Below are positions 332 through 1,423 of a stretch of DNA of 29,027 nt, in pieces. The notes below the pieces were generated by a model that saw only the letters and a list, made by a program, of their open reading frames with translations, had not been told where the DNA came from and ran no database searches. Positions within the stretch are counted from its first letter, which is position 1, and every line of letters begins with the position of its first letter. Source of the DNA: Thermoplasmatota archaeon (GTDB taxonomy: Archaea; Thermoplasmatota; E2; JACPAO01; JAHFTW01); assembly GCA_041622975.1 (NCBI GenBank), contig JBFJXU010000001.1:1-29027 (forward strand), given 5' to 3'. The translations under genes were made by a program, and so were the position numbers.

Positions 332-514
332 CTACGCGTCACGGAGTTCGTGTAGGTTGCGCACCACTTCCGTGAGCAAGTGATGGGCCTGCTCCGTGTG
401 GCGGATCTTCTCCGCCATGTCCCGTTCGTCCTTTGCCCACTCCAACAGCGTAGCCAGGTTGCCCAGGTTCTCATCGATGGACAGTTTGAGGGCATCTTCG
501 TAGAGTTTGGTCAT
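332..514 (-). CDS. Small helical hypothetical protein (60 aa, MTKLYEDALK...)
   Basis: SD GGAGGT at 521-526, 6 nt before ATG 514; ATGA overlap with the stop of the upstream gene; amphipathic helical sequence. Confidence 0.75.
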   Translation of the reverse strand: MTKLYEDALKLSIDENLGNLATLLEWAKDERDMAEKIRHTEQAHHLLTEVVRNLHELRDA

Positions 515-1173
515 TTGCACACCTCCTGGAGGGCCAGGTCCATGCGTTCGTCATCGGTGAAGTTCATGCCATCGGCAAGAGGAACCGTCTCGGGGCGGTG
601 CCAGCCATGATGCATGACCGAGGCCACGTCTGCGGAGTGCTTGGCCTCGCCTTCATGGTTGCGTTGCATAGGAATGCCATCATTGACGAGGCCCACCAGG
701 TGACCAATCCCGTGTAAGATGGCCCCGGGCGCCACGTCGTCGAGGGAGCGATTCTGCGCCGCAGCCGCCAGCGCAATGCTTGGCCCCGACACCGCTGCCA
801 GGCCCGGCGTCACGACGTAGATGGTTTCCTCACGCCCCGGGATGGGCTCATCTAGCCACCAGACGGTCAGCGACGTGGTGGAAATGCCCTGCCGGTTGCG
901 GTGGCGGTCTGCATCCAAATCGTCCCCGTCAAGCGGCGTCACAATCCACTGAACGGACCGATTGAGGAGACGGCTGGTCTCGGCCGCAACGACGGTCCAA
1001 ATCTCATCCGAGGGGGCATCTTCACCCGGCATCACCTGGAACCGGAGCACCAATCGATCGTAAGTCAAGGCCGCGCACGCCACTTGCCGGGTGGTGGTGG
1101 CATCCGCTAGCACCGTGCCCAGGCAACCAGGCAAGAGGAGGATGGTAGCAGCGGCGAAGGCCAATGCGCGCAA
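511..1173 (-). CDS. Zincin-like (metalloprotease-fold) lipoprotein with degenerate HExxH
   Basis: Signal peptide with lipobox LPGC; HGIGHLVGLVN...H..SVM resembles HExxHxxGL plus a Met-turn; TTG start. Confidence 0.65.
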   Translation of the reverse strand: MRALAFAAATILLLPGCLGTVLADATTTRQVACAALTYDRLVLRFQVMPGEDAPSDEIWTVVAAETSRLLNRSVQWIVTPLDGDDLDADRHRNRQGISTTSLTVWWLDEPIPGREETIYVVTPGLAAVSGPSIALAAAAQNRSLDDVAPGAILHGIGHLVGLVNDGIPMQRNHEGEAKHSADVASVMHHGWHRPETVPLADGMNFTDDERMDLALQEVCK

Positions 1174-1199
1174 ACGGGCGCGACGGGATTCGAACCCGC
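1174..1199 (-). repeat. 26-bp exact direct repeat of the tRNA-Arg 3' end (partner 1274-1299)
   Basis: acgggcgcgacgggattcgaacccgc occurs at 1174-1199 and 1274-1299, exactly 100 bp apart; it covers the T arm, acceptor 3' strand, discriminator and 1 extra nt. Confidence 0.97.
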
Positions 1200-1253
1200 A
1201 GTACCCAGGGCGGCTGGCACCCTGGGGCAGACGGGCCGTCCCCGCCTACGCCC
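1175..1253 (-). ncRNA. Putative tRNA-like (mimic) structure
   Basis: Minus strand folds by hand into a 6-bp acceptor (GGGCGT/GCGCCC), an 8-bp bulged D-like arm, a 6-7-bp anticodon-like arm (CCAGGG/CCCTGG), a 5-nt variable region and an intact T arm. Confidence 0.5.
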
Positions 1254-1274
1254 TCCGGCTGCTGGCGCAGCCTA

Positions 1275-1349
1275 CGGGCGCGACGGGATTCGAACCCGCG
1301 ACGACTGGCTTAGGAGGCCAGAGCCTTATCCAGGCTAGACTACGCGCCC
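1275..1349 (-). tRNA. tRNA-Arg(CCT), 75 nt, no intron, CCA not encoded
   Basis: GGGCGCG acceptor, GTCT/AGGC D stem, CTGGC-CTCCTAA-GCCAG anticodon arm, GCGGG-TTCGAAT-CCCGT T arm, discriminator G. Confidence 0.97.
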
Positions 1350-1423
1350 GAGCGGGCCACTTGAGGGGGGTTCTTGGCCGTGCCGGCCGCCGCCGTTTTC
1401 CAAGGGCATGCCATGGCCGACTC

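Follow-up and report, generated by a model that had tools for sequence, protein, structure and literature searches.

The window analyzed here is the whole of one contig (C1; 29,027 bp) from a Thermoplasmatota MAG (G000; 2.04 Mb in 303 contigs, 86% complete). On its minus strand, a tRNA-Arg(CCU) gene without an encoded CCA is followed by a G+C-rich insert (termed the cassette herein), by an exact copy of the 3' end of the tRNA, and then by the TTG start codon of a gene predicted to encode a lipoprotein (Table 1). The junction reads ...GCGGGTTCGAATCCCGTCGCGCCC-G(1175)-T(1174)-TTG(1173-1171)-CGC-GCA..., exactly as in a first-pass annotation of this DNA, which had described a tRNA mimic ending in CGCGCCC-G(1175), then T(1174), then TTG(1173). 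The direct repeat (1274-1299 and 1174-1199) covers 26 nt with no mismatch at an offset of exactly 100 nt, and the 2.04-Mb assembly contains no third copy.

Table 1. Features of the region around the tRNA-Arg(CCU) and lipoprotein genes in the window
Feature	Positions	Strand	Basis or remark
Small downstream ORF (60-62 aa, helical)	332..520	-	ATG 514-512 overlaps lipoprotein stop codon TGA 513-511 as ATGA
220-aa lipoprotein gene	511..1173	-	Codon-position G+C, HMMER homologues, alignment
GTG of automatic gene call P0001 (200 aa)	1111..1113	-	Rejected as start; invariant lipobox lost
Alternative in-frame TTG (codon 4)	1162..1164	-	Copied T-loop TTCGAAT at -30..-24 from TTG 1164-1162
TTG start codon	1171..1173	-	1 nt past the discriminator copy
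26-nt exact copy of tRNA-Arg 3' end	1174..1199	-	T arm, acceptor 3' strand, discriminator copy 1175, T 1174
79-nt "mimic"	1175..1253	-	GGGCGU (1253-1248) can pair with GCGCCC; T arm intact
74-nt G+C-rich cassette between tRNA and duplicated end	1200..1273	-	Hairpin GGCTGC-GCCA-GCAGCC (1272-1257) and stem CCAGGG...CCCTGG
tRNA-Arg(CCU) gene	1275..1349	-	Rfam RF00005, 58.6 bits; ARAGORN 1274-1350; discriminator G at 1275
TTTTCC/GGAAAA element	1396..1401	.	Only A/T-rich element upstream of tRNA-Arg

The lipoprotein gene is predicted to start at TTG 1173

The ORF at 511 to 1173 has G+C fractions of 0.68, 0.475, and 0.75 at the three codon positions, compared with 0.67, 0.47, and 0.73 in the long ORFs of the genome, and codon usage scores best in its own frame. 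An exhaustive HMMER search returned 47 homologues of about 225 to 250 aa, and the family occurs in all 38 genomes of the order. A Pfam search of the protein gave no match, a word-indexed protein search found no homologue and only the gene's own automatic call (P0001), and a single-protein search of metagenome contigs found no relative. Judging by composition and by the HMMER homologues, we consider the ORF to be a real gene.

Most homologues start with MR or VR about 14 residues before a Cys, continue with a hydrophobic stretch, and reach an SGC; in 20 aligned homologues, the lipobox residues G16 and C17 are invariant. The signal peptide of the window protein, MRALAFAAATILLLPGC, fits this pattern from residue 1, with its lipobox Cys17 at 1125-1123, and displays the basic n-region, hydrophobic h-region, and [LVI][ASTVIP][GAS]C lipobox of a predicted lipoprotein precursor. 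TTG 1173 is the first ATG, GTG, or TTG downstream of an in-frame TAG, none being found between the two. Because the homologues share the "MR...SGC" lipobox N terminus, which GTG 1113 cuts off, we assign the true start to TTG 1173. The automatic call was rejected, as it begins 20 codons too late and would delete both signal peptide and lipobox. As a side observation, gene callers may systematically misplace the starts of tRNA-abutted genes that open with TTG or GTG in MAGs of this lineage.

The mature part of the protein contains a conserved zincin-like motif, H154-x3-H158...E174, that lacks the catalytic Glu. Assignment as a zincin metallopeptidase was rejected, as the motif reads H-G-I-G-H, not HExxH, and the position of the Glu varies among homologues. 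Zincin_1 matched only 2 of 20 members (E of 0.002, below the cut-off), and the best PDB match was 1oz9 (E of 0.039). We describe the product as an uncharacterized lipoprotein of metal-binding type. The small ORF at 332 to 520 probably follows the lipoprotein gene on one transcript, and the two genes look translationally coupled.

Promoter and ribosome-binding signals at the locus

Upstream of ORF starts genome-wide, A+T content peaks at -28..-25 (0.50 versus a background of 0.38), with an A-rich shoulder at -35..-33 and a weak G or Shine-Dalgarno (SD)-like signal at -11..-8, a profile as expected if a sizeable share of the mRNAs were leaderless and had a TATA box at about -27. Upstream of TTG 1173, positions -29..-24 read ACTGCG and -15..-3 read TCCCGTCGCGCCC, and no purine-rich SD was seen. 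The absence of an SD and of a TATA-like -29..-24 that the first-pass annotation had noted here was borne out, and its contrast with "many genes here" holds roughly, as a contrast with the genome-wide peak. The interval between the tRNA and the TTG is about 77% G+C; between 1273 and 1174, we found no A/T-rich hexamer apart from the copied T-loop and no run of four or more T residues.

The TTTTCC element is located about 48 nt before the 5' end of the tRNA and at -28..-23 from the GTG (1424) of a divergent PLD-like gene, and it may be a candidate bidirectional TATA element shared by that gene and tRNA-Arg. The N terminus of the PLD-like protein (PLDc_2), MDARVVGWLVLLAC, is also lipobox-like.

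The mimic reads as a displaced tRNA end

The T arm and acceptor 3' strand of the mimic are identical to those of the real tRNA, and the mimic could form an acceptor helix of 6 bp. The minimum free energy (MFE) structure is rod-like, at -53.1 versus -47.5 kcal/mol for the tRNA-like fold (a gap of 5.6 kcal/mol), and the best Rfam match is the tRNA-Sec model, with 18 bits and an E value of 1.1. Finding 6 of 7 acceptor complements in a cassette of such composition is at chance level (shuffle p of about 0.9), and the idea of a selected acceptor stem was rejected on this ground.

Relatives provide a history for this arrangement. Same-strand synteny of tRNA-Arg(CCU) and the lipoprotein gene is order-wide. 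In G010, the real tRNA-Arg(CCU) ends in ...CATGCCC-G and is followed by TC and then GTG, yielding MSRLHWTAILAVAALANSGC after a gap of 2 nt; this orthologue, too, has a TTG at codon 4. The gap amounts to 43 nt in G012 and to 56 nt in G027 and G030 of a sister family, where CCAAAAAC and a TTTTGA/ATTTCA element at -40..-25 look like the lipoprotein gene's own leaderless-type promoter. In other genomes of the order, 260 to 1,290 nt separate the two genes, in some cases with hairpin-plus-T-run terminators directly after the tRNA (G011 and G020).

Because the unsplit junction is seen in G010, we read the mimic as the displaced original 3' end of tRNA-Arg, split off by the 74-nt cassette together with the 26-nt duplication. 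The window junction resembles the G010 state as altered by an insertion in which the tRNA was rebuilt upstream and its original 3' end was left on the gene. A purpose-built tRNA-like element is not borne out by a displaced tRNA end with acceptor pairing at chance level and a more stable rod fold. We regard the mimic as a doubtful tRNase Z substrate, going by these predicted folds; cleavage at 1175/1174 stays putative because the cloverleaf is weak, and we rate such a cut as possible while leaning slightly against it. An integrase-made attL/attR duplication at tRNA-Arg was also considered and rejected: the repeat is present, with only 74 noncoding nucleotides between its copies.

Cassettes and tRNA-end duplications in the lineage

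Partial duplications of tRNA ends are common in this lineage, 75 to 200 nt from the tRNA. In the window's genome, they involve the 3' end of Arg-CCU, the 5' ends of Leu-CAA, Ala-CGC, and Thr-UGU, and a tRNA-Glu at the other end of contig C1. About 9 of 32 tRNAs carry them in G005 (L100, L103, L105, L108, L110, L113, L116, L120, and L125) and one in G010 (L094), the cassettes of these two genomes measuring about 75 to 200 nt and the duplications of tRNA 5' or 3' ends 15 to 36 nt. Cassettes are hairpin-rich, often with an inverted copy of the tRNA end, and several in G005 and G010 combine an inverted tRNA 3' end with a shared AGCGAAGCG-like motif just past the tRNA.

Several further arrangements in the window's genome were observed. 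Exact 25- to 29-nt copies of the tRNA 5' end lie 99 to 104 nt upstream of tRNA-Leu(CAA) on C105, tRNA-Ala(CGC) on C194, and tRNA-Thr(TGT) on C226; each is followed by a hairpin-rich insert of 53 to 66 nt and a diverged copy of the anticodon arm, to which the C226 example adds the 3' acceptor strand. These copies are pseudo-tRNAs in the leader of the tRNA. Past tRNA-Gly(TCC) on C178 (L047:915-1049) are two tandem 74-nt units, of which 61 nt are 98% identical, each with a palindrome; a CRISPR array was ruled out at this site, the repeats being just these two tandem units. With introns allowed, ARAGORN places another tRNA-Arg(CCT), interrupted by an 87-nt intron, at C101:3024-3183; its 3' end is unlike that of the window tRNA-Arg. 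This call may be a false positive; the intron-allowing run was dropped, as it produced many false giant-intron tRNAs.

Other genes abut tRNAs in the same family

The lipoprotein gene is one of several with a start codon close behind a tRNA, of which kptA provides the strongest case. In 24 of 26 loci of the family, the ATG of kptA lies 2 to 5 nt past the discriminator of tRNA-Cys(GCA); the locus in G001 fits as well on manual reading, and that in G045 has a gap of 28 nt. Because the spacing is held so tightly across the whole family, we take it to be under selection. In the sister families, no tRNA was found within 1.5 kb upstream of kptA in three f2 genomes, and the only one seen in G028 (f3) is a tRNA-Cys on the opposite strand, at a distance of about 1.25 kb.

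A gene for an alpha/beta hydrolase abuts tRNA-Arg(UCU) in G000, G002, G004, G010 (twice), G018, and G043, which represent five genera, with consistent N termini. The junction in G004 also reads G-T-TTG, and on contig C164 of G000, the hydrolase ATG follows tRNA-Arg(UCU) after 6 nt. Elsewhere in G000, a 70-aa membrane ORF starts 5 nt past tRNA-His, and on contig C20, the junction tRNA-Arg(CCG)-G-C-TTG opens a conserved 81-aa gene that was found in 27 of 38 genomes and whose synteny with tRNA-Arg(CCG) is conserved. In G010, 6 of the 28 tRNAs examined (Lys, two Arg-UCU, Gly-CCC, Cys, and Arg-CCU) have a start codon 2 to 5 nt past the discriminator. As a separate observation in that genome, at L075 and L076, two tRNA-Arg(TCT) genes are each followed within 2 to 4 nt by one of two paralogous alpha/beta-hydrolase genes, which could be a duplicated tRNA-gene module or a strain mixture in the MAG. 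Pfam searches placed 5 of 7 abutted ORFs of G010 and G005 above or near threshold (hydrolase, Tpt1/KptA, LigT, and SAMP2-like); we consider the abutted ORFs to be real genes on these matches.

The tRNA-Gln/LigT pair occurs in several states. In G047, the real tRNA abuts the gene; in G005, a 32-nt duplicated tRNA-Gln end does so, and ARAGORN calls the resulting mimic a 94-nt tRNA. In G018, a decayed tRNA-Gln duplicate, its T arm degenerated, abuts an intact LigT gene, and in G043 and G010, LigT has a TATA-like element of its own. That all these states are visible supports the view that cassette insertion splits a formerly abutted pair.

How often such starts would arise by chance was gauged from neighboring distance bins and from the antisense side of the same tRNAs, random positions being unusable as they fall mostly inside genes. 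For the 95 tRNAs of G000, G005, and G010, the first coding-like start lies at most 7 nt past the discriminator in 11 to 12 cases, with the next values at 13, 22, 22, and 27, and the antisense side of these 95 tRNAs shows no short-distance spike. With an edge effect allowed for, about 12 abutted starts were observed versus about 4 expected. Because this excess is modest, it is the conserved pairs that carry the weight of the argument. Few tRNAs have an abutted gene in G007 (1 of 34) or G026 (0 to 1 of 32). The coding filter is G+C based and not valid on the A+T-rich G039, and the pattern as described here covers genomes of the order.

In the abutted genes, the T-loop lies 19 to 23 nt from the start codon, closer than the genome's -28..-25 rule, and gaps of 1 to 6 nt put a TATA box at -27 into the G+C-rich region of the variable loop and T stem, where there is none. 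Since such spacing leaves these genes no space for separate promoters, cotranscription with the tRNA and release by 3' processing would be their best reading.

A model for tRNA-dependent expression and its rivals

The lipoprotein gene has a start codon 1 nt past a co-directional copy of a tRNA end, shows no promoter, SD, or terminator of its own between tRNA and gene, and shares an arrangement that is conserved in relatives. We propose that the tRNA-abutted genes of this Thermoplasmatota family would have neither a promoter nor a ribosome-binding site of their own and would be transcribed from the promoter of the preceding tRNA gene. A tRNase Z cut past the discriminator of the CCA-less tRNA would then produce an mRNA with a pyrimidine-rich leader of 1 to 6 nt, to be translated as a leaderless message, which at the lipoprotein gene would mean leaderless-type initiation at TTG. 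Maturation of tRNAs without an encoded CCA requires a tRNase Z cut past the discriminator, and an RNase Z gene is present in the genome (contig C288; 303.5 bits, above the NCBIfam cut-off). In the window, the original tRNA-Arg(CCU)/gene junction would have been split by the 74-nt hairpin cassette, and the final 26 nt of the tRNA would thereby have been duplicated; a rebuilt tRNA would now stand 100 nt upstream, and the gene would still touch the displaced original 3' end.

This model as a whole, a class of tRNA-abutted genes that are cotranscribed with tRNAs and processed to near-leaderless mRNAs, with the junction here split by a cassette, is the reading that we favor as fairly probable; cotranscription of the lipoprotein gene with tRNA-Arg, taken by itself, is likely. 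It preserves part of the tRNA-punctuated expression put forward in the first-pass annotation: the start codon, the missing SD, TATA box, and T-run, the RNase Z gene, and the recurrence of such junctions in the family (G010, kptA, and the hydrolase) all agree with it, and the mimic as a dedicated element was given up. As an architecture of this lineage, the mechanism has good support from the comparison of genomes. Against the mechanism stands G018, where the T arm of the mimic has decayed and LigT is nevertheless intact, which suggests that cleavage at the mimic may not be needed. It also counts against the mechanism that, in systems that have been studied, leaderless mRNAs are poorly initiated at TTG. 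Because the duplication may be of recent date, an intact ORF is no proof of expression. It is somewhat unlikely, in our estimate, that displaced tRNA ends and cassettes in general are working tRNase Z signals, such that the family would run a punctuation system like that of mitochondria, in which real tRNAs and mimics alike would set the 5' ends of leaderless mRNAs, and the 75- to 110-nt cassettes would be a distinct type of small mobile or templated insertion, tolerated for keeping the processing site.

The main rival account of the window takes the 1-nt spacing as history rather than function. The gene would be cotranscribed with tRNA-Arg, tRNase Z would cut only at 1275/1274, and the mRNA would carry a strongly folded leader of 100 nt; TTG 1173, at the foot of the hairpin, would be used by SD-independent internal initiation, or the gene would now be poorly expressed. 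The rod-like MFE structure (-53.1 versus -47.5 kcal/mol for the tRNA-like one), the acceptor pairing that does not exceed chance, and the decayed G018 mimic still preceding an intact LigT are all in line with it, and the unsplit G010 state explains the spacing by descent. Against it, the mimic shares its T arm and acceptor 3' strand with a working tRNA and could close an acceptor helix of 6 bp. In three separate cases of a mimic plus a gene, the start has stayed 1 to 5 nt from the copied discriminator, and it is hard to picture initiation without an SD where a hairpin of about -50 kcal/mol closes. We judge this account rather unlikely. Alternatively, the copied tRNA end might itself hold the promoter, with the T-loop TTCGAAT serving as the TATA box of a primary leaderless mRNA that begins at TTG 1164-1162 and encodes MAFAAATILLLPGC... 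The T-loop is at -30..-24 from that TTG, matching the A/T peak of the genome at -28..-25, the TTG at codon 4 recurs in G010, and tRNA-Val on C241 has a TTCAAAT element at a distance of about 35 nt on its upstream side. Nevertheless, the same T-loop occurs in every tRNA gene, and the kptA, hydrolase, tRNA-Lys, and tRNA-Gly cases have their ATG 2 to 6 nt past the discriminator and no in-frame start near +10, so that a T-loop promoter would start transcription past their start codons. The basic residue at position 2 or 3 that homologues keep would be lost from a protein starting at TTG 1164, and a Leu at position 4 is ordinary in a signal peptide, which leaves the T-loop promoter improbable.

That the junction is a coincidence, with the true start at GTG 1113 or the ORF no gene at all and the TTG next to the repeat by chance, is suggested by the automatic call P0001 and by the word-indexed search, which gave no homologue. 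It is contradicted by the 47 HMMER homologues with their invariant lipobox G16/C17 and N termini that align from residue 1 or 2, by codon-position G+C typical of the genome's genes, and by the G010 orthologue, which abuts a real tRNA, and we regard it as highly improbable.

Significance and comparison with known systems

If the proposed cotranscription and processing do take place, tRNA 3' processing would be a routine source of leaderless mRNAs in free-living archaea and not in organelles alone, and expression of kptA, LigT, the hydrolase, and the lipoprotein would be coupled to the transcription of tRNAs. Start codons missed by gene callers, as with the call here that is 20 codons short, would then be accounted for as well. 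The tRNA-Cys/kptA junction, held at 2 to 5 nt family-wide, would be a clean, testable case, and the split junctions (the window, G005, and G018) would be natural experiments on the requirements of tRNase Z. In a literature search for archaeal leaderless mRNAs made by tRNase Z, or for start codons at a tRNase Z site, we found no direct precedent; PMC3848588 and PMC4681348 were considered and set aside, as neither describes leaderless mRNAs made by tRNase Z. Among the leaderless transcripts of haloarchaea, short leaders of under 10 nt are common (PMC4574771).

In form, the window resembles the attL/attR sites of tyrosine-integrase elements, with an exact 26-nt repeat of a tRNA 3' end downstream of an intact tRNA and a displaced copy that keeps its flank. 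It differs from them in having 74 nt between the copies and no integrase, and in that cassettes of 75 to 110 nt with 15- to 36-nt duplications recur at many tRNAs of the family, at both 5' and 3' ends. Known tRNA-like substrates of tRNase Z include the t-elements of plant mitochondria and, in Haloferax, a tRNA-like structure that precedes 5S rRNA. As in these, an acceptor and T-arm module stands beside the RNA end to be made; in contrast to them, the tRNA-like fold of the window mimic is not that of lowest energy, its 5' acceptor strand is at chance level, and it derives from a duplicated tRNA end rather than being a dedicated element.

The tRNA punctuation of mitochondria, reportedly set out by Ojala, Montoya, and Attardi in 1981, is similar in that protein genes lie directly behind same-strand tRNAs, without an SD, and in that excision by RNase P and RNase Z would leave an mRNA whose 5' end coincides with the start codon or adjoins it. 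In contrast to mitochondria, the archaeon is free-living, with about 2 Mb of DNA and normal promoters, and only a minority of its tRNAs (1 to about 6 per genome) would be used in this way; what touches the lipoprotein gene here is a fragment displaced from a tRNA rather than a whole one. Leaderless mitochondrial mRNAs are mentioned, with references, in PMC4633059 (its references 23 to 25). In Thermococcus kodakarensis, a tRNA-Lys lies inside the 159-nt 5' UTR of TK0306, and release by RNase Z has been proposed for a tRNA-Arg/snoRNA cotranscript (PMC4247193). There, and presumably here, a single transcript carries a tRNA together with an RNA downstream of it, with RNase Z as the enzyme proposed to separate them; in T. 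kodakarensis, however, the start codon is not at the cleavage site, whereas here the start is held 1 to 6 nt from the discriminator across genera.
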